Shown piece by piece: positions 1,391-47,027 of a stretch of DNA of 64,000 nucleotides. The notes beneath the pieces were generated by a model. It did not search any database. It saw only the letters and a program-made list of their open reading frames with translations, and had not been told where the DNA came from. Origin of the DNA: Elusimicrobiota bacterium (GTDB lineage: Bacteria; Elusimicrobiota; Elusimicrobia; UBA1565; UBA9628); contig JAUYSH010000120.1 in NCBI GenBank assembly GCA_030696455.1, positions 42,317 through 106,316 of the forward strand, given 5' to 3'. Each line of letters begins with the position of its first letter. Within the stretch, counting starts at the first letter, position 1. The position numbers were made by a program, and so were the translations under genes.

Positions 1391-1419
1391 CGCGCAGATA
1401 TTTCATCTGAGAGGATCGA

Positions 1420-4011: not shown

Positions 4012-4012
4012 C

Positions 4013-4618
4013 ATGAGCCAAACCTACGACCCCGCCGCAATCATGAACAACCCGGACACGCACAGCGGCGTCACGAACGCGAAGCTCGGCGTGTGGCTGT
4101 TCCTCGCCTCCGAGATCATGCTGTTCGCGACTTTGTTCACGAGCTACATCGTCCTGCGCATGGCCTCGACCTCCTGGCCGTGGGGCTGGGACGTGCTCAA
4201 CGTGCCGCTGGCGACGGTGAACACGGTCGTCCTGATCGGGTCGTCGATGACGATCGTGATGGCGTACGCGCGGGCCTACGACAAGGACAAGGGCGGCTTT
4301 CAGAAGTGGATGGCCGCGACCATCCTGCTCTCGCTGGCGTTCCTCGTCATCAAGGGCTTCGAATACGGCCCCAAGTTCGCGGCGGGCATCGGGCCGCACA
4401 CGAGCGTCTTTTACGCGATCTACTTCACGATGACGGGCCTGCATGCCATCCACATCGTCGGCGGCATCGCGGTCAACGCCGGCCTGCTGTACATGAGCAC
4501 GGTCGACGGTCATTGGAAGAACCCGCTGTTCCTCGGACGCGTCGAGGGCGCCGGGCTGTACTGGCACTTCGTCGACATCGTCTGGATCTTCCTGTTCCCG
4601 GCGCTGTATCTGCTCTAG
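4013..4618 (+). CDS. coxC: Cytochrome c oxidase subunit III
   Basis: The FLASEIMLFATLF ... WHFVDIVWIFLF ... LYLL pattern typical of subunit III, with 5 TM helices. Confidence 0.9.
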   Translation: MSQTYDPAAIMNNPDTHSGVTNAKLGVWLFLASEIMLFATLFTSYIVLRMASTSWPWGWDVLNVPLATVNTVVLIGSSMTIVMAYARAYDKDKGGFQKWMAATILLSLAFLVIKGFEYGPKFAAGIGPHTSVFYAIYFTMTGLHAIHIVGGIAVNAGLLYMSTVDGHWKNPLFLGRVEGAGLYWHFVDIVWIFLFPALYLL

Positions 4619-4627
4619 GAGGCGATC

Positions 4628-5008
4628 ATGTCCAAGAATCCCGACGCCGCGACGCACGACGAGCACCGCCCGAACGTGGCGCTCTACGTCAAGGTGTTCG
4701 CCGCGCTGATGGCGCTGACCTTGATCACCGTCGCGATCTCGAAGATCCATCTTCCCCCAGCCCAGGCCGTCTCCCTCGGGCTGTTCGTGGCCCTGATCAA
4801 GGCGGCCCTGGTCGCGGCGCTGTTCATGCACCTGTGGGGCGAGAACAAGCTCATCCACAAGGCGCTGTGGGTCACCGTGGGCCTGGGCGCGGCCCTCATC
4901 CTGCCGATCATCGACTTCGTCTTGATCTCCGGCCAGCACACGAGCCGGGCCGACGTCGCCAATCAGCATCCCCCCGGGCACGCCGAGCCCGCGACGGAAG
5001 GGCACTGA
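4628..5008 (+). CDS. Prokaryotic cytochrome c oxidase subunit IV (COX4_pro family)
   Basis: A 126-aa 3-TM protein (VKVFAALMALTLITVAI..., FMHLWGENK) positioned as caa3 subunit IV. Confidence 0.65.
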   Translation: MSKNPDAATHDEHRPNVALYVKVFAALMALTLITVAISKIHLPPAQAVSLGLFVALIKAALVAALFMHLWGENKLIHKALWVTVGLGAALILPIIDFVLISGQHTSRADVANQHPPGHAEPATEGH

Positions 5009-5009
5009 C

Positions 5010-5204
5010 ATGTCTCTCAAGATATTCCATCGCTTCTTCGTCGTGCTGTGCCTGTTCCTTTTCGCCTTCACCGGCTACTGGGCCGCGGGCGGCAACGCCA
5101 CGGCCCTCGTGACGCCGTGGCTCCTGTGGGCCAGCGCCGCCGGCGCCGCCGCGACGGCCGGCTACTTCGTCTGGCACGTCCGCAAGGTCCGGCTGCCCGC
5201 ATGA
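5010..5204 (+). CDS. Small 2-TM membrane protein in the cox operon
   Basis: A 64-aa hydrophobic ORF tightly packed between subunit IV and the next small ORF. Confidence 0.35.
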   Translation: MSLKIFHRFFVVLCLFLFAFTGYWAAGGNATALVTPWLLWASAAGAAATAGYFVWHVRKVRLPA

Positions 5205-5422
5205 GAGCTCTCGGGGCCGCCGCTTTGCTCGCCGCCCTGCCCGGCTCCGCCGCGGCCTGCGCGGTGTGCTTCGGCAACGACCCCGGGAATAAGGGCCTCT
5301 TCGATGGAATCTGGTGGGGCATCGTCGTGCTCCTGACGGTCACGATGTGCATGGTCGGCGGCATCGGCTGGCTGTTGTACAAGGTCGAGAAGGACCGCCC
5401 CGCGGACGAGAACGGAGGATGA
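5201..5422 (+). CDS. Small membrane protein with a CxxC motif (signal/TM ... AACAVCFGNDPG ... TM)
   Basis: The ATG at 5201 overlaps the preceding stop (ATGA) and the ORF ends overlapping the ctaA start. The 73-aa product has two hydrophobic segments. Confidence 0.3.
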   Translation: MRALGAAALLAALPGSAAACAVCFGNDPGNKGLFDGIWWGIVVLLTVTMCMVGGIGWLLYKVEKDRPADENGG

Positions 5423-6303
5423 ACACCTTGGCCGCCCGGCCGGCTCGCCCGAACGTCCGCCCCGCCTCCGGCGACTCGCTGTTCACCGCCTGGGCCAAGG
5501 CCACGGCCGCCGCCGCCTTCTTCCTGCTGTTCGCGGGCGGGATGGTGACCTCGACCGGCTCCGGGCTCGCCGTTCCCGACTGGCCCCTCTCCTTCGGCGG
5601 CATGAACCCGCCCATGGTCGGCGGCATCTTCTACGAGCACGGCCACCGCCTGATTGCGGGTACCGTTGCCGTTATGACCTTCGTCTTGCTGGTCCTCTCT
5701 CGCCGTCCTGGCGTTCCCTCGGGCGCCCGGACCGCGACCAGCATCGCATCAGCCGGGATCCTGCTCCAGGCTCTGCTCGGGGGCTTGACGGTCCTCCTCA
5801 AGCTCCCGCCGGCCGTTTCTATCTCCCACGCCTGCCTCGGCCAGGCCGTATTCCTCGTCCTGCTCGCCGCCGCGGTCCTCTCGGTCCCCGGAACGACGTT
5901 CGGGCCGGGCTACTCCCGCGTGTTCAAGTTCTCCGTCCTGGGCCTCGGCGCCGCCTACCTTCAGCTGGCCCTCGGCGCGCTCGTCAAGCACACGGGCCAG
6001 GGCCTGGGCTGGCATATCCTGTGGGCAAGCGCCGTTGTCGTTCTGGCCTCATTGGCGGGCTTCACCGCGTTCCGGTCCCGCGCGGCCGTGCTGAAGGGCC
6101 CGGCTTCGCTGCTCGCCTTCGCCGTACCCCTGCAGCTGGCCCTCGGCCTCTTCGCCATGCTCGTGCGCGTGGATTCGACCCTCGTCCTCGGCTTCCGCGA
6201 GGCCGCCGCCTGGCGCACCGCGCATTTGTCCGGCGGCGCGCTGACTTTGGCCGCCTTCCTCCTTCTTGCCCTCAAGTCGCGCCGGACCGCGGAGGCGCCG
6301 TGA
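5419..6303 (+). CDS. ctaA: Haem A synthase (COX15/CtaA family)
   Basis: GGAGG-ATG start. Polytopic, with FFLLFAGGMVTSTGSGLAVPDWPLSFG and HRL motifs typical of CtaA. Confidence 0.8.
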   Translation: MNTLAARPARPNVRPASGDSLFTAWAKATAAAAFFLLFAGGMVTSTGSGLAVPDWPLSFGGMNPPMVGGIFYEHGHRLIAGTVAVMTFVLLVLSRRPGVPSGARTATSIASAGILLQALLGGLTVLLKLPPAVSISHACLGQAVFLVLLAAAVLSVPGTTFGPGYSRVFKFSVLGLGAAYLQLALGALVKHTGQGLGWHILWASAVVVLASLAGFTAFRSRAAVLKGPASLLAFAVPLQLALGLFAMLVRVDSTLVLGFREAAAWRTAHLSGGALTLAAFLLLALKSRRTAEAP

Positions 6304-7139
6304 AGACCTATCTTCAGCTCGCCAAGCCCCGCATCGCCTTGATGGTGGCGCTGACGGTCTGGCTCGGCTGGGCCCTCGCCGGCGGCGGGTCGACGGCGGC
6401 CCTTTTCTTCGTCACGCTCGGCGCGTCCTTGGCCGCCGGCGCGTGCGGGGCGCTCAACCAGCGCCTCGAGATCGTCGAGGACGGCCTCATGAACCGGACG
6501 CGCAACCGCCCCCTGCCGACCGGGCGGGTCACGCCGCGCGCCGCGCTCGTCTTCGGCCTGGTCCTCGCGGCCGTCGGCCCCGCCATGGTCTGGGCCGCCG
6601 GCGGCGCCCTGGCCGGGGGCCTCACGATCGCCACGATCGTCCTTTACGTGCTCGTCTACACCCCGCTCAAGAAGGTCACGCCGCAGACCACCTGGATCGG
6701 CGCCGCGGCCGGGGCGACCTCCCCCCTGATCGGCTGGACTGCGGCCGGCGGACCTCTTGATGAACGCGCCTTCACCTTGTTCGCCATCCAGTTCCTCTGG
6801 CAGATCCCGCACTTCCTCGCGCTGTTCTGGATCTACCGCGAGGAGTACGCGCGCGCCGGCTTCAAGGTGATGCCCGTCGTGCACCCCAGCGGCGGCACCA
6901 CCGCCATCCAGATCGCCGTCCATTCCTTCACCTTGCTGCCGGCCACGGTCGCGCCGTCGCTCGTCGGCCTGACCGGTCCGGGCTACGCGATCGGCGCCTT
7001 CGCCGTCTCCGGCTCCTTCCTGCTGCTCGGCCTGCGCGCGAGCTGGACGATGACCGTCGCCGATAACCGCCGCCTGTTCCTGGCCTCGCTCGCTTTTCTT
7101 CCGCTCATCTTCGGCATGATTCTCTTCGGAGGCGTCTGA
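6300..7139 (+). CDS. ctaB: Protohaem IX farnesyltransferase (haem O synthase)
   Basis: The GTG start overlaps the ctaA stop. UbiA-family motifs NQRLEIVEDGLMNRTRNRPLPTG and YTPLKK. Confidence 0.85.
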   Translation: MKTYLQLAKPRIALMVALTVWLGWALAGGGSTAALFFVTLGASLAAGACGALNQRLEIVEDGLMNRTRNRPLPTGRVTPRAALVFGLVLAAVGPAMVWAAGGALAGGLTIATIVLYVLVYTPLKKVTPQTTWIGAAAGATSPLIGWTAAGGPLDERAFTLFAIQFLWQIPHFLALFWIYREEYARAGFKVMPVVHPSGGTTAIQIAVHSFTLLPATVAPSLVGLTGPGYAIGAFAVSGSFLLLGLRASWTMTVADNRRLFLASLAFLPLIFGMILFGGV

Positions 7140-7140
7140 C

Positions 7141-7839
7141 ATGAACCGCTGGCTTATACCCGCTTTGCTCCTCTCCCTGGCCGCCTGCTCCCGGCAGCCC
7201 CAGCTCACCGACCCCGTCGCCCGCGGCGAACGCGACTTCAACGGCCTCGGCTGCGTCAAATGCCACGTCGTCGGAGATAAGGGCAACAACTGGGGCCCCG
7301 ACCTGACCAACCTGGGCTTTCGCAAGTCCGCGGACTGGATCGATCATTGGCTCAAGGATCCTCACGCCTGGAACCCGAAGACGGTCATGCCCAACTTCAA
7401 CCTGAAGGACAACACGCGCGCCGACCTCGTCGCCTACCTCTCCGCGCAGAAGGGGCAGGCCTGGAAGGTCAAGCCGTGGGAGACGGCGGCGGCGAAGGCC
7501 CTCCCCGCCCCCGAGCGCGGCCGCATCGTCTTCGACTCCGTCGGCTGCGTCTCCTGCCACGCCAAGGACGGCTACGGCGGCTACCCGAACAACAACGTGG
7601 CCGGCGGCCTCATCAGCTCTCTGACCAAGGTCACCGAGGGCTACAGCAAGTCCGAGTTGGCCGACAAGATCAAGCACGGCGCCGTGCCCATCCCGAACGA
7701 CACGAAAGCTCCGGCGCCGATGCTGCAGATGCCGAAGTGGGGCGACCAGCTCAGCGCCAAGGAAATCGACCTGCTCGTCGAGTACCTCTTCTCGGTGGCG
7801 CCGAAAAGCTCCGGGCCGGCCTCCGCGGACGACTTCTAG
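7141..7839 (+). CDS. Dihaem c-type cytochrome lipoprotein
   Basis: Lipobox LSLAAC. Two CxxCH motifs (CVKCH, CVSCH). Last gene of the cox operon. Confidence 0.8.
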   Translation: MNRWLIPALLLSLAACSRQPQLTDPVARGERDFNGLGCVKCHVVGDKGNNWGPDLTNLGFRKSADWIDHWLKDPHAWNPKTVMPNFNLKDNTRADLVAYLSAQKGQAWKVKPWETAAAKALPAPERGRIVFDSVGCVSCHAKDGYGGYPNNNVAGGLISSLTKVTEGYSKSELADKIKHGAVPIPNDTKAPAPMLQMPKWGDQLSAKEIDLLVEYLFSVAPKSSGPASADDF

Positions 7840-9056
7840 CGCTTCAGGCGCTTGCGCAGCGCGTCGACGTAGGCGTTGGGCCCCATGCCCCGCAGCGCGT
7901 GGGTGTCCTGTCGAGCGAAGACCTTGCGCGCGCGCTCGGGACGCCCCGCGGCGAGCTCGGCCTCGATGACGGCCCACTGGTCGCTCGGCCAGTCCTCGAG
8001 CCCTCCGGGCGAGCGCAGGACCCGCCCGTCGCGCACGAAGCGCGTCCAGATGAAATCGAGCGTGCGCCGGGCATGAGCCTTCTGGGCGGGCGTGGACGCC
8101 GGCGAGAGCAGGACGGCGCGGGCCATGTCCGCGTTCGGTCCCGCGAACAGCCGCCGATCGACCTCGGGCAGGCCCGATGCCCGGCGGGCGGCGTCGTCCT
8201 TGGCGAAGTAGGAGGCCCCCTCTTCGATGCGCCCGTCGGCGAGCGCGACCTCCCCCATGACGGAGGAGGCATAGCCGCCGCCGGGGAGGGTCATGAAAGC
8301 CTCGACGAAGCGCAGGACGGCCGCGGCGCGCGCGGCGTCGGTGGACAGGACGACGGCCGCCTGATCGCCCAGGGTCTTGGCGAACTCCGTCGGAGAACGG
8401 CGAACGCCGCCCCACACCGCGTCGTCGGGCCCGGGCGCCGGCTCGGGACGGCGCCTCACGGCCTCGAGACGCCGCCGGGCGTCGGCGGCGAAGCCGTCCG
8501 CCTTGGCGGGATCGGCCGTCACCGTGCTCGCGATCAGGCTCGCCCACGGGATGAGCAGCTTCGAGGTCAGCCGCGCCGCACCGGCCAGCTCCCGCCCGTC
8601 GGGGTGGATCAGGGCCGTCGTCGGCCAGGCGCCGACGCCGTACATGAACGCCAGGTCGGGCCGCTCGTCCGTGTCCGCGCGCGTCGCCGCCAGGTTCTCG
8701 GCGATCCATTTCGCCGTCTTCGGATCGGCGTAGGCCGTCTCCTCCATGAGCCGCGCCTCGCGCGACCAGACCGGCGCCAGGTGCAGCAGCACGAGCTTGT
8801 TCTGCGCCCGGGCCCGCGACAGCGCCCCCGGATAGAACTCGCCGAACTCCACAAGCATTCGCGACGGCGTCCTGTACGCCGGCGCCTTCCCGCGCCCCCA
8901 GCCCCCGGTCATCCACGACGGAAAAACGCCCGGGCTGATGGCGATAAGACCGGCGGCCAACGCGCAGAGGGACATGATCCCGCCGAGGATCATCATGACC
9001 AGCGCATGCGTCCGTTTGGATTTGAGCTTCTGTTCTTCCGTTCGGTTGTCGGCCAT
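7836..9056 (-). CDS. Membrane-anchored DUF255/thioredoxin-fold protein lacking the CxxC motif (redox-dead YyaL paralogue)
   Basis: N-terminal TM helix. The region aligning to the YyaL CHWCH motif reads LLHLAPVWSREARLMEETAY. It lies directly downstream of yyaL. Confidence 0.5.
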   Translation of the reverse strand: MADNRTEEQKLKSKRTHALVMMILGGIMSLCALAAGLIAISPGVFPSWMTGGWGRGKAPAYRTPSRMLVEFGEFYPGALSRARAQNKLVLLHLAPVWSREARLMEETAYADPKTAKWIAENLAATRADTDERPDLAFMYGVGAWPTTALIHPDGRELAGAARLTSKLLIPWASLIASTVTADPAKADGFAADARRRLEAVRRRPEPAPGPDDAVWGGVRRSPTEFAKTLGDQAAVVLSTDAARAAAVLRFVEAFMTLPGGGYASSVMGEVALADGRIEEGASYFAKDDAARRASGLPEVDRRLFAGPNADMARAVLLSPASTPAQKAHARRTLDFIWTRFVRDGRVLRSPGGLEDWPSDQWAVIEAELAAGRPERARKVFARQDTHALRGMGPNAYVDALRKRLKR

Positions 9057-9059
9057 AGA

Positions 9060-11123
9060 TCAGGTCAACCCCAGTCGCAATTCATCGGCGGATTCGATCG
9101 GCAGGCCGCAGGCCCGTTCCACGCACAAGTAGGCTCGTGCGCCGGCCCCTTCAGAGAACTCCCCGACTATCGGCATCGTCGCCGTCAACGCCGCCTTGTC
9201 GGCTCGCCGATAGGCGGCGAAAACGAGTCCCGGTCGAATCCGTTCGCGCACGACTCCCAGCAATTCCTTCCCTCCCGGCAGATCCACGTCGGCGATGATC
9301 AAGGTCCGCCTCTTCCCGGCCGCTCTGTCCCAAGCGGCCAAAAGAAAAGGCATCGCGAGCGGCCGCGAAGATAAGGAAGGCCCGAAGCGTTCTAAAGTCT
9401 CGTTCGCGAAACGATTGAAATCGTCGTTGCCGGTGAGCTCCCACAGCCGCAAGCACACATCGGCCATCACCGAACTCGGAGACGGTTCTACCCCGTCGTG
9501 GTTCTCGATCGCCCGCGTAAAAAGTTCGCCGCCGTCATTTTGGCCCGTCTGAAAGAGCCCCCCGCCGTCCGCCGCGAAGCGGCGAATGGTTTCCATCGCG
9601 AGGTCGTTCGCCCAAGCGATATGCTCGGGTTTCAAGGAGGCCTCATACAGCCCCAGCATCCCATACGCCATGTTCGCGTAATCATCCGCCATGCCGTTGA
9701 TCGCCTTTTCCCCGTCGCGCCATCGTCGCCGCAAGGCCTTTCCGTCAGGCGACGATAATTCGCGCCTGACGAAGTCCGCCGCTCCTTCCGCGAGTCCCAG
9801 ATATTTCCCGTTGCCGGTCGCGCCGTAAGCGCGCGAAAGCCCCGCGATCGCGAGCCCGTTCCACGAAGCCAATATCTTGTCGTCCAGCGCGGGCCTCGGC
9901 CGCTTCGCTCGTTCCTCGAACAGCGCGCCCCGCGCCTTCTCCGCGTCCCCCTCCGCCATCGCCCCCGGGTCCATGTCGTACAGCACGCACTTCCCGGCGA
10001 ACTCCCCCTGCGGGTCGGCCAGCGCGTTCGTCCCCTCGACCACGCCGTACCTCGCGCAGAACTCCGGAGCAGCGTTCCCTAAGACGGCCTCCACCTCGGA
10101 TCTCCGCCACAGGTAGAACGCCCCCTCCGCCTTATTCCCGTGGGGCTCATCATGCGGCAGGCTGTCGGCATCCTCAGCCGAATAGAACCCCCCGTCCGGC
10201 GCCCGCAGGTCCCGCTCGAGATACGCGATCGTCCGTTCGAGCGCTCGTAAAAGCTCGCCGTCATTCGTGACGATCACCGCATCCGCCAGATTTTCCACCA
10301 GCTGCGCGTTGTCGTACAACATCTTCTCGAAGTGCGGCACCCGCCACGCGTGATCCGTCGAGTACCGCGCGAACCCGCCCCCGAGCTGGTCGAAGAGCCC
10401 CCCCCGCGTCATCGACCGCAGCGTTTCCACCGCCATGCCCCGCGCGTCGGCGTTCCCGGTCCGCGCGTGCCTGCGCAGCAGGAAGCGGATGTTCGCCGGC
10501 ATCGGGAACTTGGGCGCCTCGCCGAAGCCGCCGTGCTCCGCGTCGAACGCCGCCCTCAGGGCGCGCTCCCCCGCCTCGAGCGCCGCTTCCTCGGGACGGC
10601 CGCGCGCCTCGGCGGAGGCGGAGGCGTAGGCCGTCACGGCGCGCGCCAGCCCCTGGGCGTCGTTCTCGATGTCGGCGCGCCGGTCCTTCCAGAGAAGGGC
10701 CAGGCGCTCCAACAGGCTCGTCCACGAGGGACGCCCGTAGCGCGAGTCCGGCGGGAAGTAGGTCCCCCCGTAGAACGGCTTGAGGTCCGGCGTCAGAAAG
10801 ACGTTCAGCGGCCAGCCCCCTTGACCGGACATCGCCTGCACGGCGGTCATGTACACCTTGTCGACGTCGGGGCGCTCCTCGCGGTCGAGCTTGACGCAGA
10901 CGAAGGCGCGGTTCATGACCTCGGCGACGGCGGGGACCGAGAAGCTCTCGTGCTCCATGACATGGCACCAATGACAGGTCGAATAGCCGATCGAGAGCAG
11001 GATCGGCTTGTCCTCGGCCTTGGCCCGGGCGAAGGCCTCGGGCCCCCACGGGTACCAGTCGACGGGGTTGTCCTTGTGCTGGAGCAGGTACGGGCTTTTC
11101 TCGGCGGCGAGGCGGTTGGCCAT
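9060..11123 (-). CDS. yyaL: Thioredoxin-domain protein YyaL (DUF255 plus six-hairpin glycosidase-like domain)
   Basis: The ATG at 11123 ([31 protein letters not shown]...) and the [20 protein letters not shown] active-site motif. The longer track ORF is an upstream wrong-frame extension. Confidence 0.8.
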
Positions 11124-11494
11124 CAGCGGCCGCCGAGCGCGGCGCCGACGCGGAACAGCGCCAGGCCCGCCGCGACGCTGAGGAGCGCGTAGCCCCCGCC
11201 GCGCAGGGGCGCGACGCGCAGGAGGGCGTCGAGCTCGAGGATCAGGGCGGAGAAGGTGGTGAAGGCGCCGCAGAACCCCGTCATGAGCAGCATGCGCCCG
11301 TGCGTGCCGCCGAAGCCGCGCTTGGCGGCGGCCGCGTCGACGAACCCGATCAGCAGGCAGCCGCTGAGGTTGACGGCCATGGTGCCCCAGGGCAGCCAGC
11401 CCCCGAGCAGGCGGAACAGGCCGGCCGACAAGGCCCAGCGCGCGAGCACGCCCGCGGTCCCGCCCGCCAGAAGGGCGCCCATGCTCTCGATCAT
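11123..11494 (-). CDS. crcB: Fluoride ion channel CrcB/Fluc
   Basis: 123 aa, 4 TM helices, with the [10 protein letters not shown] motif. Its stop overlaps the yyaL start. Confidence 0.8.
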
Positions 11495-36449: not shown

Positions 36450-37046
36450 TTAAAGGTCCTTCGCTTCCTTCAGCTCTTCGTATCGCTTCGGATTCTTCGT
36501 CTTGAGCTGGTCGATGAGGCCCTTGCGGTGCGCCGCCCAAGCCTTGGCGTTCTCTCCGGTCTTGCGCTTGATCGAGTCGTAGGCGAGGAACTCATAGATG
36601 GACTTGCCGTCGGCCTTCTGGATGCCGCAGCCGGGCTTGTTCATCATGCGCTTGACGTAGCGGCTCCAGATCTTCGTCTCGATCTGCCACACGGAGGCGT
36701 CGGTGAACAGCTCGGGCTGGGCCTTTTTGAGGGCGGCGAGCGCGGCCTCCTGCTTCTTATCGTCGATGCCGCCTTCGGGCTCGACGAAGCGGCTGTTGAG
36801 CGGCCGCGCTGCGGAATGGCACTGGGCGCAGCCGCCCTTCGTGCTGATCATCTTCTTGTACCCGGCCTGGACGTTGGCGGGGTAGGTCTTGAGCAGCGCG
36901 TCGGGGATCGTCTCCGGCCCGAAATCGTTCGGATACGGATTGGTGAGAGCCTTTTCCTTCTCCGTCATCTCGGCCGCGCGAACGGGCGACGCGAAGGCCG
37001 CGCCCAGCAGGGCGACGGCGGCAAGCAACGTCAATTTGCGGTTCAT
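36450..37046 (-). CDS. Monohaem c-type cytochrome, periplasmic
   Basis: Signal peptide and the CAQCH haem-binding motif. Confidence 0.8.
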   Translation of the reverse strand: MNRKLTLLAAVALLGAAFASPVRAAEMTEKEKALTNPYPNDFGPETIPDALLKTYPANVQAGYKKMISTKGGCAQCHSAARPLNSRFVEPEGGIDDKKQEAALAALKKAQPELFTDASVWQIETKIWSRYVKRMMNKPGCGIQKADGKSIYEFLAYDSIKRKTGENAKAWAAHRKGLIDQLKTKNPKRYEELKEAKDL

Positions 37047-37075: not shown

Positions 37076-37333
37076 TTAAAACCCGCTGTCGTCCTTATCG
37101 GCGATGCTGATCAGCCAGGTCGCGAGGTCCTCGAGCTCCTTCTTGGAGATCTTACCTTTCCAACCGGGCATATAGACCATCGGCATGGGGCCTTTCGGGC
37201 TCCACTTCTGGACTTCGCCGGCCGGCACGCCCGCCTCGATCTTGTGGATGAGCTCGTCCTTCGTGTAGGTCCCCACGAGCTTGGGCAAGGTCGGCTCGGC
37301 GCCGAGGTTCATCTGGGCCAACTGCTCATCTTC
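37076..37333 (-). pseudogene. Met-ligand half of a class-I cytochrome c domain, cut off from the upstream multihaem cytochrome by an in-frame TAA
   Basis: Same frame as 37334-38461. The product reads ...PKGPMPMVYMPGWKGKISKKELEDLATWLISI and has no CxxCH of its own. The only start in the fragment is a TTG. Confidence 0.5.
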
Positions 37334-38461
37334 TTAGAGCTTCTCATCGTACTCCTTCTGGCCCTCGCCCGCCGCGTTGAAGCGGCGCCGGCCCTGCTTG
37401 GCGTCGAGGCCGTGGCAGCCTTGGCAGCCGTACTTCTCATAGACCCGCTTGCCGTTCGCCGCGCCCGTCAGCTGCGGCTCGCGCGCTTTCGCCGCCGTCA
37501 CATGGTAGCGGTACGGGATGATCTCTTCCTTGGTCAGGCCCGAGAGGTAGGTGGTGATCGCCTCGGCGCCCTCGGCGCTGAGCTCCTCGCGGAAGTCGGG
37601 CATGCCCGACGGCGGGATCGGCTCGGCGTTGTAGTGCGCGAACGGGTCGTTGGGCGTGACGGCGGCCGGATCGTTGACGAGGTGGGCGCGGATCCAGTTC
37701 TGGAGGTTCCAGTGGTTGTTATGGTGCTCGTTGGGCAATTCCTTGCCGTCGATGCGGATCTTCTTGAAGTTGTAGCCCGCGATGCGCTCGAAGGGCTTGT
37801 CGGCGATGTCGCCGAGTTCGACGGAAACGACGCCGCCCACGCCGTTGATCGCGTGGCAGCCCTGGCAGCCGTGCTTATTGAACAGCTTCTTGCCTTCGGC
37901 CGCGATCTCCGCGCCCTTGAGGGTCTCGAAGTTGTCGTGGCACTTCACGCAGGAGCCCTGGATGGTGGCGCCCTTGAGCATGGGCTTTTCCCAGTGCTTG
38001 ACCCAGCCGTGGGCGGCGTCCACCTGTGTCGCGAGCCCCTGGCCGGAGTGGCACGAGGTGCAGCCGAACTTGGAGAACGGGTGAGCCTTGATCAGCGCCG
38101 TGTCCACCTTCGGGTGGGCCTTGTACGGATGCTCGGTGAAGCTGTTCTTGAGCGTGGTGTTCGTGTACTCGTCCATGCCCACGTGACAGGTCACGCAGCG
38201 GTCGAAGCGCCCCAGATCGTTCGCGATGATCTGCTTGATCTCGAGCGGCGTGCGGCGCATCTTGCGCGCCTCGGCCTTAAGCTCCGCGGCCTTCTTCTCG
38301 TCCTTCTCGGCCGCCGCCTGCTTCTCCATCTCGTCGGCGGCCATTTGGTAGTACTGCTTCTGGTACGGCTTCCACTCCGCGTTGAAGTCCTTGGCGAAGG
38401 CCCAGACGAAGGCCGCCAGCATCAGCGCGTTGGAGGCGATAAAGGCTTTTCGGTAGCTCAT
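37334..38461 (-). CDS. Multihaem c-type cytochrome (5 CxxCH) of the Rieske/cytochrome b complex
   Basis: N-terminal TM helix. Motifs CVTCH, CTSCH, CVKCH, CQGCH, CQGCH. It ends at TAA (37334-37336) 30 residues after the last CxxCH. Confidence 0.8.
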   Translation of the reverse strand: MSYRKAFIASNALMLAAFVWAFAKDFNAEWKPYQKQYYQMAADEMEKQAAAEKDEKKAAELKAEARKMRRTPLEIKQIIANDLGRFDRCVTCHVGMDEYTNTTLKNSFTEHPYKAHPKVDTALIKAHPFSKFGCTSCHSGQGLATQVDAAHGWVKHWEKPMLKGATIQGSCVKCHDNFETLKGAEIAAEGKKLFNKHGCQGCHAINGVGGVVSVELGDIADKPFERIAGYNFKKIRIDGKELPNEHHNNHWNLQNWIRAHLVNDPAAVTPNDPFAHYNAEPIPPSGMPDFREELSAEGAEAITTYLSGLTKEEIIPYRYHVTAAKAREPQLTGAANGKRVYEKYGCQGCHGLDAKQGRRRFNAAGEGQKEYDEKL

Positions 38462-38462
38462 G

Positions 38463-40118
38463 TCAGAAGTTCATGCTGAGCGCGGGGATGGTCAGCACGT
38501 ATTTGATGTCGAAGGCGAGGCTCGCGCACATCTTAAGAAGAATGCTCATCGTGCTGGTCACCAGGACCATCGTGACGAGATACCTCGGCCAGTCCAACGT
38601 CCGGATGTGCCGCTGCGGCAGGACGAAGCCGTAATAGAAGGAGGCGCCGACCAGGAACAGCAGGAAGCCCGCCTGGGTCGCGTTCATGCGGCCCATGGCC
38701 ATCCCGACCGCGGCGAACAGCGCCAAGAGGCCCAGGAAGCCGCCCATCAGCTTCTTGCCGTCGAGCTCCTTCTGGATCAGCTTCGGCAGAAGCATCCACG
38801 CGGCGCCGACCGCGCCGAGCAGCGGGATGCCGATGAGCATGCTGTAGGCTCCCACTCCCTTCGGGCCGAACACGCTCCAGGTGGGAGGCGGCGCGGGCTT
38901 ATTGAGGAACCAGGACTCCCACGGCCAGTACCACGCGTAGTTCGGCCCGCGCAGGGCGTAGCCGATGTAGATCAGCGCGAACCACATCACGACGCCGAGC
39001 ATGAACATGGTGTTCGCGAACGGGCGCTCCTTCCAGGCGTAATAGCCGACGCCTTTCGGGTTCGTGTCGATGTAAGGAATGGCGATCAAGCCGACGACGA
39101 TCAGCCCGGGCATGACGACGCCGGCGATCCACGGGTCGAAGTACACGAGCAGTTCCTGCAGGCCGACGAAATACCAGGGGGCCTTGGAGGGGTTCGTGGT
39201 GACATTGGGGTTGGCGATCGCCTCGAGCGGGGCGTCCTGCAGGATCGACCAGATCATGATGAAGATCACGGTCGCCGCGGCGGCGATGTACTCGCGCTTG
39301 ACGAGGTGCGGCCACACGTCCACCTTCTCCTCGTTGGCGACGTAGGGCGCGGCCGAGAAGCTGTCCTTGCGGATCCTCCAAAAGTGCAGAATAAGAAGGA
39401 TGCCGACGACGAGCGGCACCGCCACGCAGTGCATGACATAGAAGCGCAGGAGCGTGTTCTCGCCGACCATGGTGCCGCCGAGCAAGGTGAAGCGGACGTC
39501 GTTGTTGATGCGCATGCCCATCAGCGAGCCCAGGGGGCCCTCGTTGCCGAGGACGGGGGTGGCGCCGGCCATGTTCGTGCCGACGGTGACGGCCCAGATA
39601 GCCAGCTGGTCCCAGGGCAGCAGGTAGCCGGTGAACGAGAGGAACAATGTCAAGGTGAGCAGAAGGACGCCGATGCCCCAGTTGAACTCGCGGGGCTTCT
39701 TGTACGCGCCGGTCAGGAACACGCGCACCATGTGCGCGATGACGGCCACGACCATCGCCTGGGCGGCCCAGCGATGGGCGTTGCGCAGGAACATGCCGAG
39801 CGTGACCGCGAACTCGAGGTCCTTGATGTCGCGATAGGCCAGTCCAATAGTGGGTCTGTAGTAAAACATCAGCGCCACGCCGGTGAGCGTCAGGATCAGG
39901 TACAGCGCGAAGGAGATGCCGCCCATGCCCCAGGTGTAGAGCCACTCGAGGGCGCGAGGGCGGACCTTGACGGGGTGAAGGTGGAGCCAGACGTTGCCGA
40001 TGATGTGGCCGGCGCGGTCGCGCGGGGTGTCCTTCCAGACGCCGCCGCGGAAGACGGACCGCCAGAGCTGGGAGTCGATGATCTCTTTCTTGATCTTCTC
40101 GAGGTCTAACGTGGGCAT
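38463..40118 (-). CDS. Cytochrome b (bc-complex b subunit, long form)
   Basis: Typical b/b6 N-terminus ([13 protein letters not shown]...[47 protein letters not shown]). 551 aa, polytopic. Confidence 0.85.
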
Positions 40119-40131
40119 TATTTTATAGTCC

Positions 40132-40707
40132 TCAGGCGGACGCGTAGTTCGCGAAATAGGGTGCGTGCTCGCGCTTGCCGGGCTTGTTCTCGAGGATGGC
40201 CTTGTCGACGATCAGATCACCCGTCGCAGCCAGCTCGACCTTGGTGCGCCACAGCGGCATCGGCGCGGGGCCGGCGATCACGTCGCCGCCGAGCGTGAAG
40301 TTGGAGCCGTGGCACGGACACTTGAAGCGGTTCTGGTCGTCCCACCAGTTGGGCGTGCAGCCGAGGTGCGTGCAACGCGCCCACATCGCGTAAAAGCCGG
40401 AAGGCGTCCGCACGATCCAGACGCGCTGCTCGTTGAGCCACTTCGTGGAGACGCCGACGTCGTAGCTCGCGGCGGGTCCCGCGTTGAACTTCTGCGACGG
40501 CTCGTAGATCACGTTCGGGAACATGAAGCGGGCGCCGGCGGCCGCGGAGGCGGCGAAGAAGGCGGCGAGCATGCCCCAGCCGGCCCAGAGGAAGTCTCCG
40601 CGCGAGATGGGCTTGACGGGGGCGGGCGCCGCAGGCGCGGGGGCCGTCGCGGCGGGCGCGGGCTTCGGGTCGGAGTCGGGAGCCGGATTCGGAGTGGGTT
40701 CGCTCAT
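40132..40707 (-). CDS. Rieske [2Fe-2S] protein
   Basis: [10 protein letters not shown]...CPCHGSNF boxes. Pro/Ala-rich N-terminus with a degenerate Tat-like SRGDFL motif. Confidence 0.9.
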
Positions 40708-40768: not shown

Positions 40769-41716
40769 TCAATTAGCGCGAGCTCCTGTCAAACCGCCTC
40801 GTCCGGCGCGCTCCGCGTCGGCCGCCCGTTCGAGGACCCAGGCGTCGAAGCCGTCGTGGGGCATCAAAGTCTCGCCGCTCCAGGCGTAGTCGAGCCCGGC
40901 GAGATCCTTGACGATCTTGCGCTCGATGCCGCCGCGGGCGATCAGCACCGGCAGCACGAGGGCGCGGGACTTCTCCCCCTTCGCGCCCGCGACCATGGCG
41001 CGTATCTCGGCGACGGCGGCCGCGCGGATCGCCGGCGCGGCGTCGTCGCGCAGCAGGCCGTAGCCGCAGCTGCGGAAGCTCTTCAGCGCCCCGCACAGCG
41101 AGCGCATCGAGCCTCTCCAAGACTCGAGGGCCGCCTCGTCGACGGGACCGTGCGCGACGAGGACCACCCGCTCGCGCGCCGGGTCCCGGCTCAGCGCCTT
41201 GGCGCGCGCGTTGAGGATGCGGCCGACGAGCTCGTGATCGTCGAGAGCTCGGGCCAGGGCGATGGGCCGGCGCGCCTTGACCCGCTCCGTGGAGAACTCC
41301 ATCGAATGGCCGTGGGCCGGCGCGGCGTGAGCGCCGTGCGCGGCGTGAGCGCCGTGGGCCTTGGCCATGCGCTCGAGCCCGGCCCGCAGCGCCTCGGACG
41401 GCGTGTCCGAGAGCCCGAGCGCGTAGGCCGTCTGATCGAGCACCTCGGAGCGGCTTTGCACGAACAGGGGCACGGCGACGATGCGCGCGACCTTGCGCTT
41501 CTCGAGGCGATCGACCGCGGCCTGAAGCGACTTCGGGTCGGCCATCCCGAGCGCGGTCTCGGTCGGGACCTTCGCGTTCACGCGGACGCGGAGGTCCTCG
41601 ACCTCCTTGTTCCACGAAGCGTCCCCCCCGTGCGCGAGAAGGAGTATGCCGTACGGGGCCTTCGCGCGGGCGGGCGCGGCGAGGAGCAGGAGCGACAGGA
41701 CCGCCGCGGACCTCAT
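40769..41716 (-). CDS. CbiX/SirB-type chelatase, long two-domain form
   Basis: Signal peptide, then two repeats (GILLLAHGG... and VVLVAHGP...). His-rich linker HGAHAAHGAHAAPAHGH. Confidence 0.6.
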   Translation of the reverse strand: MRSAAVLSLLLLAAPARAKAPYGILLLAHGGDASWNKEVEDLRVRVNAKVPTETALGMADPKSLQAAVDRLEKRKVARIVAVPLFVQSRSEVLDQTAYALGLSDTPSEALRAGLERMAKAHGAHAAHGAHAAPAHGHSMEFSTERVKARRPIALARALDDHELVGRILNARAKALSRDPARERVVLVAHGPVDEAALESWRGSMRSLCGALKSFRSCGYGLLRDDAAPAIRAAAVAEIRAMVAGAKGEKSRALVLPVLIARGGIERKIVKDLAGLDYAWSGETLMPHDGFDAWVLERAADAERAGRGGLTGARAN

Positions 41717-42792
41717 CCGGGATATTCCGCGTCTAAGACCCGACCATCCGTTCGGTCGGCGTGCTTGAGGCTGAGCTCAGGGCCCGACGACAGGGACCGC
41801 GCCCAGGCGGCGAACTCGGCGGCCTTGGCGTCGACGATGCGGCGCGCCGCGGCGACGGCCTCCGCACGCGAGGCCATGTTCTTGGCGACGATCGCCTCGA
41901 GGTCCTCGAGGCGGTATAAATACACGCCATCGATCGCGTGCACCGACTCCTCGATGTCGCGCGGCATCGCGATGTCGATCAGGAACAGCGAGCGTCCCCC
42001 GCGGCGGCGCACGGCCTCCGACACGATGGCGCGCGTGAGCACCGCGGCCGGCGCGCCGGTCGAGGAGATGACGACGTCGGCGCGCTCGAGCTCGGCGGGG
42101 AAGGTCTCCCACTTGACGGCCTCGCCCTGGTAGCGGGCGGCCAACTGATAGGCGCGGTCCCAGGTGCGGTTGGCGACGACGAGCTTGCTGACGCCGCGCG
42201 CGGCGAGGTGCTTGGCGGCGAGCTCGGACATCGCCCCCGCTCCCAGGATCAGCGCGCACTTCCCCTCGAGACGGCCGAAGATGGTCTCGGCCAGCTGGAC
42301 GGCGACGGAGGGGACCGACAAGGAGCCGGAGGCGAGCGCGGTCTCGGTGCGGACCTTCTTCCCGACGAACAACGCGCGCTGGAACAGCACATTGAGGCGC
42401 TTGCCGGTCATGCCCGCGGCCATCGCCTTCTCGTAGCCGGTCTTCACCTGGCCGAGGATCTCGGTCTCGCCCACGACCAGGGAGTCGAGGCCCGCGGCGA
42501 CCGCTAAGAGATGGTCGACCGCGGCGGCGTCCTCCCGGATCTCGGCCTGCGGGCCGAGGCTCGTTTCCGCCAGCTCCTCGAGGATGGCGACCAGCCCCGC
42601 CGCCGCCAGGTCCTGATCGGCTTGCCCGGCGACATATAATTCGAAGCGGTTGCAGGTGGACACCGCGACGGCCTCCGCGAAGCCGCGCGTCTTGAGCTCG
42701 AGCAGCACCCGCTCCACGGGGACGGAGGCGAGCGCCTCGCGCGCCGCGCACACGCGGTCGCGATGGCTCCAGCTCAGGCAAACGAGCTTCAC
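41713..42792 (-). CDS. hemA: Glutamyl-tRNA reductase
   Basis: GTG start (GTGA overlap). Active-site region AVSTCNRFELY, HLLAVAAGLDSLVVGETEILGQVK, and the NADPH-binding GAGAMSELAAKHL. Confidence 0.85.
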   Translation of the reverse strand: MKLVCLSWSHRDRVCAAREALASVPVERVLLELKTRGFAEAVAVSTCNRFELYVAGQADQDLAAAGLVAILEELAETSLGPQAEIREDAAAVDHLLAVAAGLDSLVVGETEILGQVKTGYEKAMAAGMTGKRLNVLFQRALFVGKKVRTETALASGSLSVPSVAVQLAETIFGRLEGKCALILGAGAMSELAAKHLAARGVSKLVVANRTWDRAYQLAARYQGEAVKWETFPAELERADVVISSTGAPAAVLTRAIVSEAVRRRGGRSLFLIDIAMPRDIEESVHAIDGVYLYRLEDLEAIVAKNMASRAEAVAAARRIVDAKAAEFAAWARSLSSGPELSLKHADRTDGRVLDAEYPG

Positions 42793-43637
42793 TTCCCCCC
42801 CAGGTAGTCGTGGCTGTCGGAGAAGACCCCGGCGCCGAAGAAGGTCAGCAGGATGCACGCGAAGCCGGCCATGGACACGTAGACGGGGGTGCGTCCGCGC
42901 CGGCCGGAGACGTAGCGCAGCCAGATGAACGCGGCGTAGAATCCGACCGTGACCAGCGACATGATCTCTTTGGCGTCCCCGGACCAGGCTCGGCCCGAGG
43001 ACTGGTACGCCCACACGGCGCCCATCACCAGGCCGAGGACGAGGATGGGAAGCGTGATGGCGATGATGCGGCTGTTGAGGGCGTCGAGCTCGTCGAGAGA
43101 GGGCAGCCGGTAGCACAGCTCGCTCGGCGTGCGCGACTTGATCTGGCGCTCCTGGATCAGCAGCGCCAGGGCCACGCCGAAGGCGTTGGTGAACGTGGCG
43201 TAGGCGGTCATCAGAATCATCGGATGAATATTGAGCCAGTAGCTGCGCAGCTTGGGCTCGAGCGGCGCGAGCTCGGGATTGGCCAGGATCACGGCGAGGC
43301 CGAGGCCGAGGGCGGCCATGGGCAGGACGAAGGCCCCGAGTATGCCCAGGTGCCGTCTGACCTCGATCGTGAAGAACGCGCCGGCCAGGGCGAAGGACAT
43401 GTAGGAAAGCGCGCCGAAGAAGTTGTTGATCGGCAGGAACCAGCGGTTCTCCGGGAAGGCCCAGAACGCGGCGAGGTGGATGCCGAAGGAGAGGAACTGC
43501 AGGACGAGGCCGCAGCCGACGAAGGTCAGCATGAGACGGCTGGCGCGCTCGTTCTTCGTCAGAAGGTAATGGAGGGCCGCGACGGAGGCGGCGGCGTAGA
43601 GAGCGAACGCGGACCACGATAGGACCATCTTGATCAT
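42789..43637 (-). CDS. Cytochrome c assembly protein (CcsA/HemX family)
   Basis: 8-TM protein with a W-rich motif GAVWAYQSSGRAWSGDAKE (WWD-like). Upstream of hemA, as in hemAX arrangements. Confidence 0.65.
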   Translation of the reverse strand: MIKMVLSWSAFALYAAASVAALHYLLTKNERASRLMLTFVGCGLVLQFLSFGIHLAAFWAFPENRWFLPINNFFGALSYMSFALAGAFFTIEVRRHLGILGAFVLPMAALGLGLAVILANPELAPLEPKLRSYWLNIHPMILMTAYATFTNAFGVALALLIQERQIKSRTPSELCYRLPSLDELDALNSRIIAITLPILVLGLVMGAVWAYQSSGRAWSGDAKEIMSLVTVGFYAAFIWLRYVSGRRGRTPVYVSMAGFACILLTFFGAGVFSDSHDYLGGK

Positions 43638-43688
43638 GCCGGAGACTATTCTAGCATGTGGCTGAAGGGCGCCGCGAGAGCGGCGGGG

Positions 43689-46600
43689 TCAGTCGCCGGA
43701 CCAGGGGTTGAAGCGGCCGCCGATGACCGGGGCCTCGTCGCACAGCTTCTTGAACAGTTCGAGCTGGGCCTTCGTGGCGCCGCGGGACTTCAGGCTCTCG
43801 AGCGTGTTGTAGTAGGCCATGTTGTACTCGGTGTGAGACCAGATCCCGCCCTTGGAGGAGGCCACTGACCTCGCGGCCGCGGAGATATCATCGTTGGTGA
43901 GCTTGGTCTTCTTGCCGCGCAGCGTGCCGGCGAGCAGGCCCAGGCCGAGGACCCCGCCCATGCCCCGGAAGAATTCCTCGATGGACGGGATCGGGCCCTG
44001 CCAGCCCTCGGGGACGGTCGGCACCGCGACGGGGGCATTGGTCGCCGCCCAGAAGATGGCTGCGTAGATCGCCGCGACGAGGGAGGCGGCGCCGAGCCAG
44101 AGCAGGAAGAGCTTGAGCGCCGATTCCTTCGGCGCGGCGGGCGGGCCGCGGCGGATCTCGCCGGTGCGCGCGTTCATCCTGAAGAGCTCGTCGCGGGAGT
44201 CCTGATAGGAGTACCATAGATCCCTTTCCCTGTCGCCGTTGGGCCGCTGGACGCGCGGCAGGAGGCTGACCCGAGTGACGCCGTCGACGCCCTTGAGCCC
44301 CGCGTCCGGCCCCAGCTTCACGCTCAGGTCGAAGTACGCGGCACCCATGCCTTCGGCGAGCCGCTCGGCCGAGACCATGCCCTTGAGCTCCGGCTCGAAG
44401 GCGTCCATCATCGTCTCGGAGACCGTCGTGCGGCGCGCGGGAACCATGTACTCGACGCCGCCGCTCTCCCCGCCCCAGCCGAAATGGAACCGCCACTCGT
44501 CGCCGACCGCGGCGCCGTTGAAGAAACGGGTCTCGTGCACGCCGGACAGGAAGGTGATCCGGTTGACCGGAACGCCGGCCGAAGCCGCCTTGGCCGTGAT
44601 CTTCTCCAACGCCAGCGCGTAAAGCTCGTTGGGCGCGACGGCATGGGTCAGGCCGGCCGCCTTCGCCGCGGCCCGCGAGGCCTTGTCGGACAGCTTATCG
44701 ACGCGAACGAAGGCGCCGGAGGCGCCGACCGTGCCCACGCTGCCGGCATCGTCGTAGAAGCGGTAGGAGAACTGGGAGCCGTTGCCGTCCAACGCGGGGC
44801 GCGCGGCGAGCGAGACGGACACGCCCGAGCCGAAGCCGGGGACCTCGTTCTTGAGGAGGAGCAGCGCGGCTTCAGGGGTGAGAGCGACGAAGGACTTGAA
44901 GCCCTCCGCCGAGATCGGATGGGACTTCCGCGTCGGGGCCGCGCCCGTAAAGACGCTCGTCTTGAAGTCCTGGCCGTTGCCGAGGAAGGTCGAGAAGTCC
45001 ACGTAGATGAGGGCGTTGGGGACGGAGAACTTGTAGTGCCACTGGGCGCCGTCTCGTATCGGCATCGAGGCGGTCGCCTCGACGAACTCCACCTGGTCGG
45101 CCGGCACGCCGCGCTTGGCCGCGGCCTCGCGGGCCTGCTTGAGCGCCGTCGCGTAAGACTCGTTCGGGTCGGAGAGGACCGACGGGCGCCAGGCGCTCAT
45201 CATCCCGGCCATGCCGAGCGCGGTCGCGCCGAGGAAGAAGCCGGCGTCTTCGCCGAAGGGCGAGAGCTGCCAGTTGCGCACGGCCTCCTCGCCCATGCGG
45301 ACGATGTCGCCGAGCGCGGAGGCGAGGGCGTACCAGCCCAGGGCGCCGAGGCCGATGATCGTGCCGATCATGCCGAGCTGGATCGCCGTGCCGACCTTGT
45401 CGCCGCCCTTGGACGCCGGAGCGGCGGGCTTGGAGGCGACGGACTCGAGTACCTTCTGCGCGACCTCCGGGCCGTGGCCCGCGAGGTTCCAGCCGTTGGG
45501 GATGCGCGGATCCATCTTGCGGCCGACGCCGATCGCGAGCGCGCCGGGCAGGCCCTTGGCCATGTTGCGATCGGTCTCGTTGCCGGTCTCGCCGATCGGC
45601 AGGCCGCTGAGCTTGAGGCCCAGGCGCGTCAGCCAGGAGTCCTTCTTCGCGGCGCGCGGCACGTACATCATGTCGCCGATGACGAGGGCCTGGGAGGCGG
45701 AGAGGCCGAGCTTCGAAGCGATCTTCGCGGTGGCCGGGGACTTCGTGATGATCGAGAACGTGGCGTAGCCGGGGTTCTTGAGGTCCTTCGGAAGGCGGCC
45801 GGAGACCTCGACCTCGATGCCGCGCTTGGCGAGTTCCTCGCCCATGATGCCGGCGACCTGCTTCATCTGCGCCGGGGTGGCGCCGACCTTGATCATCAGG
45901 GCGTAGCCGTAGGTGTTGTAGGACTCCTTGGGGTTGAGCGAGTCGCCGGGGTGCTGCTCGACGCCGGCCTCGGAGAGCCGCGCGATCGTCGCGGCGGAGG
46001 CTTCCTTGACGGCCTCGAGCTTCTCGGCCGCGAGCGCCTCGGCCTCCCAGACCTTCACGGGAGCTCCGTTTTGATATTGGTAAAGCCGGCCGCCGCTGTT
46101 GGCGGCGACGTACATGCCCTCGGTCACGTCGGCCGGCAGGCTCGCCATCGACTCGAAGACCGTGAGCTGGGTGGAGCCCGCGCGCTTCTCGTCGCCGCGG
46201 TCGCTGACGACGGCGAAGTGCTTGCCGGCCTTGCGGATGGCGCGGATGGCGTCGATCTTCTCCTGGGACAGGACTGCGTTGTAGCCGGCGAGGGTGTCGT
46301 CGAAGTCGGAGACCACGAGCTGCTTGTCGGCGGCGGAGGCGATGATCTTGGCGGAGAGGGCGGTCCCGGCCTGCGGCAGGGAGAACACGGCGCCGGTCAC
46401 GGCCGCGATGGTCTTCAGGGCGAGGCGGTGGAAGCTATAAGAGGAAGAGGACTCGACCGTCTTGGGCGCGTCGGCCTTCGGAGCCGCGGCGGGGACGACC
46501 GACGGCTTGGGCGCCTCGGGCGCGGAGGGCGCCGGCAGAGCCGGAGCCAGAGCGGACGGCGCGGCGGCGACGGCGTCTGAGAGCTCCGAGCGCCGCGAGG

Positions 46601-47027
46601 TCGCGACGCCGGTCAGGACGCTCTCGAGGTCTCGGCCCGCGGTCGCGGCGGCGGAGCCGCCGGTCTCGGACTTCGCCATCGCCTGCAGGGCGGGCGCGGC
46701 GGCAAGGATCTTCCCGGCGATCGCGGCGGTGGGAGCCGCGGGCTTGAGCGCGGCGGGCGCGGCGGCGACGGGAGCGCCGAGCCGCGGCGACGCGGACAGC
46801 AGGGAGGGCGCCGACAGAGAGGGAGCCGTCAGGGACATCGCGGGCGCGGCCAAGGACGGCGGCGGCGCGTTCAGGGAGCCGAGGCCGACCTGCGGGGCGG
46901 CGGACACGGGAGTCGCGCGGCCGATGACGGCTTGCGCGAAGGCCTGCTGCGCGTCGATCCCCACGGAGAGGACGACGAGCGCGGCGGAGAGTGCGATCGA
47001 GACGAGGCGTTTGAGGCGTCGGGCCAT
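43689..47027 (-). CDS. Large secreted/membrane protein: signal peptide, Ala/Pro-rich linker, HAD-type phosphatase, 2 TM helices, tandem PepSY-like domains, C-terminal TM and domain
   Basis: HAD motif I VVSDFDDTL, motif II VVSDR, K/GDMMY motifs. TM helices near residues 560-620. Two about 80-aa repeats (AAKRGVPADQVEFVEA...WHYKF...LIYVD and AASAGVPVNRITFLSG...WRFHF...EYMVPA). Confidence 0.55.
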   Translation of the reverse strand: MARRLKRLVSIALSAALVVLSVGIDAQQAFAQAVIGRATPVSAAPQVGLGSLNAPPPSLAAPAMSLTAPSLSAPSLLSASPRLGAPVAAAPAALKPAAPTAAIAGKILAAAPALQAMAKSETGGSAAATAGRDLESVLTGVATSRRSELSDAVAAAPSALAPALPAPSAPEAPKPSVVPAAAPKADAPKTVESSSSYSFHRLALKTIAAVTGAVFSLPQAGTALSAKIIASAADKQLVVSDFDDTLAGYNAVLSQEKIDAIRAIRKAGKHFAVVSDRGDEKRAGSTQLTVFESMASLPADVTEGMYVAANSGGRLYQYQNGAPVKVWEAEALAAEKLEAVKEASAATIARLSEAGVEQHPGDSLNPKESYNTYGYALMIKVGATPAQMKQVAGIMGEELAKRGIEVEVSGRLPKDLKNPGYATFSIITKSPATAKIASKLGLSASQALVIGDMMYVPRAAKKDSWLTRLGLKLSGLPIGETGNETDRNMAKGLPGALAIGVGRKMDPRIPNGWNLAGHGPEVAQKVLESVASKPAAPASKGGDKVGTAIQLGMIGTIIGLGALGWYALASALGDIVRMGEEAVRNWQLSPFGEDAGFFLGATALGMAGMMSAWRPSVLSDPNESYATALKQAREAAAKRGVPADQVEFVEATASMPIRDGAQWHYKFSVPNALIYVDFSTFLGNGQDFKTSVFTGAAPTRKSHPISAEGFKSFVALTPEAALLLLKNEVPGFGSGVSVSLAARPALDGNGSQFSYRFYDDAGSVGTVGASGAFVRVDKLSDKASRAAAKAAGLTHAVAPNELYALALEKITAKAASAGVPVNRITFLSGVHETRFFNGAAVGDEWRFHFGWGGESGGVEYMVPARRTTVSETMMDAFEPELKGMVSAERLAEGMGAAYFDLSVKLGPDAGLKGVDGVTRVSLLPRVQRPNGDRERDLWYSYQDSRDELFRMNARTGEIRRGPPAAPKESALKLFLLWLGAASLVAAIYAAIFWAATNAPVAVPTVPEGWQGPIPSIEEFFRGMGGVLGLGLLAGTLRGKKTKLTNDDISAAARSVASSKGGIWSHTEYNMAYYNTLESLKSRGATKAQLELFKKLCDEAPVIGGRFNPWSGD

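Follow-up and report, generated by a model that had tools for sequence, protein, structure and literature searches.

Noncanonical Rieske/cytochrome b complexes, among them the actinobacterial bcc complex with its QcrC subunit and the R/b complexes of anammox bacteria, have a cytochrome c gene after the genes for the Rieske protein and cytochrome b, and their c subunits, which are multiheme or diheme, carry a membrane anchor and tandem class-I domains. The same gene order and the same two protein features are found in the 64-kb stretch of Elusimicrobiota DNA analyzed here (the window), which comes from a metagenome-assembled genome (MAG) in GenBank. However, the c subunit encoded in the window differs from those of the bcc and R/b complexes in its five predicted hemes, which comprise a c7/c3-like three-heme module and two class-I domains, and in its anchorage by an N-terminal helix; its fold match to QcrC (7qhm_C) is weak (probability, 0.44). 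Its gene is also interrupted by an in-frame TAA, and the closest described counterparts of that interruption are the premature stops and split open reading frames (ORFs) seen in MAGs as consensus errors or young pseudogenes. As in those cases, a conserved gene has become two annotated ORFs through one substitution, the orthologs and an assembly of the same strain are intact, and there is no decay past the stop; the only difference is a closely linked second substitution. The TAA itself is private to the MAG, a one-base lesion of a familiar kind.

The operon lies on the minus strand. A gene for a 191-aa Rieske [2Fe-2S] protein (positions 40132 to 40707) precedes that for a 551-aa cytochrome b of the fused b6 plus subunit IV type (38463 to 40118), which adjoins the start of the cytochrome c gene (TGAcATG). 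The complete cytochrome c gene extends from 37076 to 38461 and has 461 codons plus a stop, as it does in the orthologs and in Logan contig L005, which encodes the intact protein P0125. Downstream is a conserved gene for a 198-aa protein (36450 to 37046) that has a single CAQCH and belongs to no Pfam family; it is syntenic in contigs L001, L003, L004, and L005. The order Rieske, cytochrome b, cytochrome c, and 198-aa protein is found in the window, L002, L003, and L005, and L001 and L004, which are cut by contig ends, show the same order in the part that they hold. On the strength of operon and synteny, the cytochrome c is a putative subunit of the Rieske/cytochrome b complex. The 198-aa protein has a signal-like N terminus and is probably an uncharacterized monoheme cytochrome partner of this bc-type complex. 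The cytochrome b has a long C-terminal extension, and its best curated matches are to ExtP and ExtQ of a selenite/tellurite reduction operon, both below the cutoff (251 versus 290 bits and 40 versus 150 bits). For the cytochrome c, no NCBIfam equivalog scored above its cutoff.

As read in the window, the first ORF of the cytochrome c gene (38461 to 37334, minus strand) starts with an ATG at 38461, has 375 codons, and ends with the TAA at 37336 to 37334. It contains five CxxCH motifs: CVTCH (residues 89 to 93), CTSCH (134 to 138), CVKCH (171 to 175), CQGCH (199 to 203), and CQGCH (346 to 350). A first-pass annotation had described this ORF and its five motifs, and translation of the ORF agrees with it, except that the stop, there placed 30 residues past the last CxxCH, lies 25 residues after the His of that motif and 29 after its first Cys. 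The residues around stop codon 376 are EYDEKL-X-EDEQLAQMNLGAEPTLPK. Past the stop, the frame stays open for 85 sense codons, including GPMPMVYMPGWKGKISKKELEDLATWLISI, until a TAA at 37078 to 37076, and this downstream part has neither further stops nor frameshifts. The continuation, which encodes ...GPMPMVYMPGWKGKISKKELEDLATWLISIADKDDSGF, is 93% identical to the C terminus of the 461-aa ortholog P0001, which makes it homologous sequence rather than a chance open frame.

GenBank holds the two pieces as separate proteins: MDP3543915.1 (375 aa), labeled “c-type cytochrome,” and MDP3543914.1 (81 aa), labeled “hypothetical protein” (Q8T11_15710), which is the translation of an 81-codon ORF with a TTG start (37076 to 37321, minus strand). 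The latter ORF is the C-terminal half of the second class-I domain rather than a gene in its own right. The fragment is devoid of Cys and, as had been noted, has no heme attachment motif of its own. Of the candidate starts in it, the TTG at 37321 to 37319 comes first but is not, as had been thought, the sole one: an ATG at 37312 to 37310, three codons on, and further internal ATGs are also in frame.

Like other class-I domains (PF00034; cytochrome c6, c551, and CcoP types), the last domain of the cytochrome c has a CxxCH after an N-terminal helix, a Met-Pro ligand motif, here invariant and about 80 residues farther on, and a C-terminal helix. It differs from them in an insertion of about 35 residues that separates the heme-binding helix from the ligand loop. 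The insertion varies among orthologs, with partial deletion in 38 of 120, and the TAA of the window falls inside it. On the intact P0125, PF00034 matches residues 334 to 452 (48.4 bits versus a cutoff of 21.3; profile positions 1 to 88 of 90), while the two pieces of the window taken separately give partial matches only. The match indicates one class-I domain, the second of the protein (37106 to 37462, minus strand), that crosses the stop at codon 376, so the proposal that the TAA splits the last class-I domain holds. The heme attachment site of the split domain, the fifth CxxCH (CQGCH; 37412 to 37426, minus strand), is upstream of the stop, and Met431-Pro432 (37166 to 37171, minus strand), with the predicted axial Met ligand of heme 5, is downstream of it; both are invariant in the 120 aligned sequences. 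In cytochrome c6 (9krr_A), the segment MPGFKGRIS..., which contains the axial Met of that protein, is the aligned counterpart of residues 431 to 456 (MPGWKGKISKKELEDLATWLISIADK).

Structural modeling gives the same picture of the domain. In the AlphaFold model of P0001 (pLDDT, 87.6; pTM, 0.85), the last domain has helices at residues 333 to 343, 377 to 385, 401 to 410, and 440 to 452, and a Foldseek search with the modeled domain matched cytochrome c6 structures at a target-normalized TM score of about 0.7. A Foldseek search for a solved homolog of the whole protein found none (best E = 0.02). The N-terminal transmembrane anchor helix (residues 3 to 26; 38384 to 38455, minus strand) is hydrophobic in sequence and is modeled with a pLDDT above 90. 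The product is a predicted membrane-anchored pentaheme cytochrome c, with a c7/c3-like three-heme module and two class-I domains. The distal Met is absent from the 375-aa product of the window and is present in P0125 and in all aligned orthologs. The results support the view that the 375-aa product would keep the attachment site of heme 5 and lose the distal Met and the C-terminal helix. The earlier suggestions that the frame continues with the Met ligand half of the domain and that truncation would leave the fifth heme without its distal ligand are in line with these data, as the 85 codons after the TAA hold the conserved Met-Pro and the C-terminal helix.

A search with the two pieces joined found 471 relatives, and the best 120 of these were examined. 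They are single proteins of 420 to 483 aa with 98 to 100% query coverage, with the exception of P0074 (362 aa; 79% coverage), which sits on a 1,740-nt contig, is probably cut off by its contig end, and was left out of the alignment. The alignment comprised 120 sequences, including 119 orthologs from this set, and all relatives listed with a source name are from Elusimicrobiota/Elusimicrobia. The gene is continuous in all 119 of the aligned orthologs, and none ends at codon 376; the closest among the matches listed are exactly 461 aa long, which equals 375 + 1 + 85. The first-pass annotation had named two observations that would speak against a split domain, namely, orthologs that end at the same position and a downstream piece unrelated to the C terminus of cytochrome c. 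The alignment that it called for shows neither: every ortholog runs through, and the downstream piece is homologous to the C-terminal half of the domain. Downstream of the stop, M384, G387, P390, L392, E403, L404, G424, P425, M431, P432, W434, and L450 are invariant in the 120 sequences.

At the stop column, the 119 orthologs have Ser (30 sequences), Pro (24), Thr (19), Asp (7), Ala (1), or an 11-residue deletion (38). These mixed residues and deletions place the stop in a variable, indel-prone loop. No other part of the last domain is as variable or as rich in indels as this loop, at about residues 366 to 382 (A2 columns 445 to 462, approximately); two aligned sequences have a 4-residue insertion in it, and 38 of 120 are without the 11-residue segment. 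A lesion of another kind occurs in the same C-terminal domain of P0135, a protein in the cluster of P0002 that is encoded on an 11,344-nt ENA contig from a close relative. It equals P0002 through ...PKGPMP and then runs out of frame to 463 aa, with the change just before the Met ligand. This frameshift is another lesion or assembly error in the cytochrome c family.

The most direct evidence on the TAA comes from an independent Logan assembly of run SRR13727523 (contigs L005 to L008), in which the strain came to light solely via exact-protein look-ups. P0125 (461 aa) is from this assembly and falls in the 90% cluster of P0001; it differs from the joined protein of the window solely in having KLSEEEQ where the latter has KL*EDEQ. 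L005 (SRR13727523_16313; 12,512 nt) aligns with positions 47922 to 35411 of the window without gaps and with three mismatches, and L006 (35438 to 31206), L007 (31235 to 29374), and L008 (11128 to 4571) are 100% identical to it. Together, L005 to L008 allow a comparison over 25,107 nt, in which there are 3 substitutions and no indels. The cytochrome b and the 198-aa protein that flank the cytochrome c are also present, and identical, in the Logan assembly.

The three substitutions, given from Logan to window on the minus strand, are as follows. At 37335, the middle base of the premature TAA (codon 376; 37334 to 37336), C to A (G to T on the plus strand) turns TCA (Ser) into TAA; at 37328, 7 nt 3′ of this base, A to T turns GAA (Glu) into GAT (Asp) at codon 378; and at 42505, C to A (again G to T on the plus strand) turns TTC (Phe96) into TTA (Leu) in hemA. 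Phe96 of hemA lies in the HLF motif of glutamyl-tRNA reductase, which reads HLF in M. kandleri (1gpj) and HIF in Arabidopsis (4n7r), so that the Phe is conserved in both. The TTA at 42505 is of a very rare codon type in a genome with a GC3 of about 0.9. The window states are derived, as the outgroup contigs L001 to L004 show for the two cytochrome changes and the match of L005 to the conserved residue shows for all three. The TAA is thus a private, derived one-base change, and the same-strain allele is intact. In an exact-sequence look-up, the truncated 375-aa and 81-aa products were on record from this MAG alone.

Other searches of the public data gave less. When the local sequence was scanned for as an exact pattern, with NNN in place of the stop, genome contigs and metagenome contigs gave 0 matches, and neither coxA nor the RND transporter was matched by exact look-up in the contig index. 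The retrieved Logan contigs end inside genes, and the misses for coxA and the RND transporter may reflect assembly fragmentation. A literature search on the run, the locus tag prefix, and the protein accession returned nothing relevant.

The region after the stop bears no trace of an extended period without selection. For the window and L001, the Nei-Gojobori method gives a dN/dS of 0.10 over codons 1 to 375 and of 0.12 over codons 377 to 461, with the same picture for L002 to L004. The downstream value is close to the upstream one, which indicates that the sequence has spent no measurable time free of selection or as a pseudogene. Of the signs of a pseudogene, we found a premature stop relative to orthologs, and we found neither relaxed constraint nor reproducibility in independent data of the same lineage. 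All three window-specific bases are nonsynonymous, while about 30% of the differences are nonsynonymous in real divergence of the cytochrome c gene; the probability of three of three is about 0.03 at natural divergence and about 0.4 under unfiltered, random mutation. The pattern fits changes that have not yet been filtered by selection. Two of the three substitutions are 7 nt apart (P of about 0.0025 if they were independent), and this spacing suggests one local event.

Several further explanations for the origin of the substitutions were considered and rejected. Against L001, the window has 8 differences within 21 nt, which might be taken for a mutational hotspot or a recombination patch, but 6 of the 8 are the lineage's own allele and 2 are private. 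This lineage allele, KLSEEEQL (CTC TCA GAA GAA GAG CAG TTG), is the one found in L005 and, at the protein level, also in P0122, P0123, and P0131. A templated origin by ectopic conversion or template switching was discarded, as the derived 18-mer has no second copy in the window at up to 3 mismatches. The fact that all three changes are transversions is no error signature, as 63 to 70% of natural divergence in the clade is already transversions. Two of the three substitutions destroy GAAGAG/CTCTTC hexamers (an EarI-type recognition sequence that occurs 12 times in 16.7 kb), the third is 5 nt away from such a hexamer, and both 37335 and 42505 are plus-strand G-to-T changes directly before A(A)GAG. 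Such a context might point to an error tied to the sequence or to a process linked to the motif; with a post hoc P of about 0.04, it is only weakly significant and was not adopted as the basis for a mechanism. Neither the transversions nor the hexamers nor the otherwise clean assembly distinguishes an error from a young allele.

The first-pass annotation had left three explanations side by side: a recent nonsense mutation, a sequencing or assembly error, and read-through. The TCA of the same strain keeps the first two and counts against the third. Because the same-strain assembly reads Ser, the TAA is best seen as an assembly error or a very young mutation, with no recoding signal. Between these, we lean toward an artefact of consensus or assembly, or a minor haplotype among the reads that was taken up by the assembler, and we infer this cause with a confidence only a little better than even. 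The gene would then be an ordinary, continuous 461-codon gene for the cytochrome c subunit of an Elusimicrobiota Rieske/cytochrome b complex, and the TAA would be a private TCA-to-TAA deviation in the MAG consensus, accompanied by a second private substitution 7 nt away, with neither recoding nor gene splitting. The real gene of the organism would read Ser376, as in the Logan assembly, and the 375-aa and 81-aa GenBank proteins would be annotation by-products of one base.

It is quite possible, if not the reading that we would choose, that the TAA is a genuine, very recent nonsense mutation in the sampled population or a subpopulation, perhaps as one multinucleotide event that included codon 378. 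Translation would then end at codon 375, with the anchor and hemes 1 to 4 kept. CQGCH may still bind heme 5, but a domain without Met431 and the C-terminal helix would probably be misfolded; the 85-codon remainder would yield no useful protein, and the allele would be a loss-of-function allele at the start of pseudogenization. The quality of the deposited consensus speaks for such an allele: it otherwise agrees with the independent assembly (3 differences in 25,107 nt and no indels), the MAG has no other sign of poor quality (0 indels in 25 kb and normal ORF junctions), and a base enters a short-read assembly only with several concordant reads behind it. The stop falls within the variable loop described above, the frameshift of P0135 shows that lesions in the last domain do occur in assemblies, and three of three nonsynonymous changes (P of about 0.4) are unremarkable for brand-new mutations. 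A single haplotype would carry two such linked substitutions 7 nt apart, although the pair is as compatible with an error as with a real haplotype, minor or sample specific. However, the same strain carries the intact allele in SRR13727523, the truncated product appears in no other record, the constraint downstream is not relaxed, and the gene is conserved and continuous in every aligned ortholog. Furthermore, this bc operon has only one cytochrome c subunit, and a cost would be expected if its terminal heme domain were lost. A real allele would amount to a loss-of-function polymorphism affecting that domain of a bc complex cytochrome, of local interest to population genetics and without a novel mechanism.

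Programmed read-through or suppression of the TAA, giving the full 461-aa protein, possibly beside the 375-aa form, is very improbable. The locus resembles known programmed read-through in having an in-frame stop with homologous coding sequence after it, and an open frame with a downstream part under purifying selection is also what would be expected if the stop were decoded. However, the stop is not conserved (it occurs in 0 of 119 aligned orthologs, and the same strain has TCA) and is without a stimulatory structure: for a 116-nt stretch around and downstream of the stop, the minimum free energy was no better than that of shuffled sequences (z = +0.29). TAA is, moreover, a normal terminator in the window, where it ends other well-supported genes, such as coxA and the full-length cytochrome gene itself, which argues against codon reassignment. 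The window has four other same-frame ORF junctions, all of them ordinary gene boundaries with start codons, and no other in-frame stop that would be a sign of poor assembly or an altered code; there are no tRNA genes within its 64 kb. UAA followed by G is an efficient terminator in Escherichia coli, and we know of no established case of efficient programmed read-through of UAA in bacteria. Less probable still is a TAA that is real in the population and partly decoded by a near-cognate or suppressor tRNA, with truncated forms of four to five hemes and full-length forms made from one gene; if true, it would be a young, strain-level UAA read-through in a respiratory complex subunit.

Equally far-fetched is a functional split, in which the 375-aa cytochrome and a separately translated polypeptide of 78 to 81 aa reassemble in the periplasm and complete the heme 5 domain: although the TTG (37321) and ATG (37312) are in frame after the stop and the 81-aa ORF is listed as a protein in GenBank, the fragment lacks both a signal peptide and a membrane anchor and so could not reach the periplasm, the site of c-type cytochrome maturation, no Shine-Dalgarno-like sequence precedes the TTG or ATG (GGGGGA precedes the next gene), 0 of the aligned orthologs are split, and the same strain is unsplit.

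The main relevance of the TAA, whether artefact or young allele, is for annotation quality. MDP3543915.1 and MDP3543914.1 are fragments of one conserved 461-aa cytochrome and should be merged or flagged as a disrupted or miscalled gene. The case also shows that, when read pile-ups are not at hand, a suspected recoding site can be settled by comparison with an independent assembly made from public reads. The cytochrome c gene family may merit study for itself, apart from the stop codon.

The surroundings of the operon contain other genes related to cytochromes. Upstream of the Rieske gene, at 40769 to 47027 on the minus strand, are a CbiX-like gene, hemA, a CcsA-type cytochrome c assembly gene (PF01578), and a gene for a 1112-aa protein without a Pfam family. 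With hemA and the CcsA-type gene as neighbors, genes for heme synthesis and cytochrome c maturation are clustered with the bc operon. Farther away, a heme-copper oxidase cluster lies at 1411 to 11128, with coxB and coxA separated only by TAG-ATG at 2275 to 2280. GenBank labels the subunit I gene of this cluster “cbb3-type.” The neighbors of the oxidase in L008 are COX4_pro, CtaA, a UbiA/CtaB-type gene, a class-I cytochrome c, and a DsbH-like thioredoxin, and the cluster looks more like an aa3/caa3-type locus.
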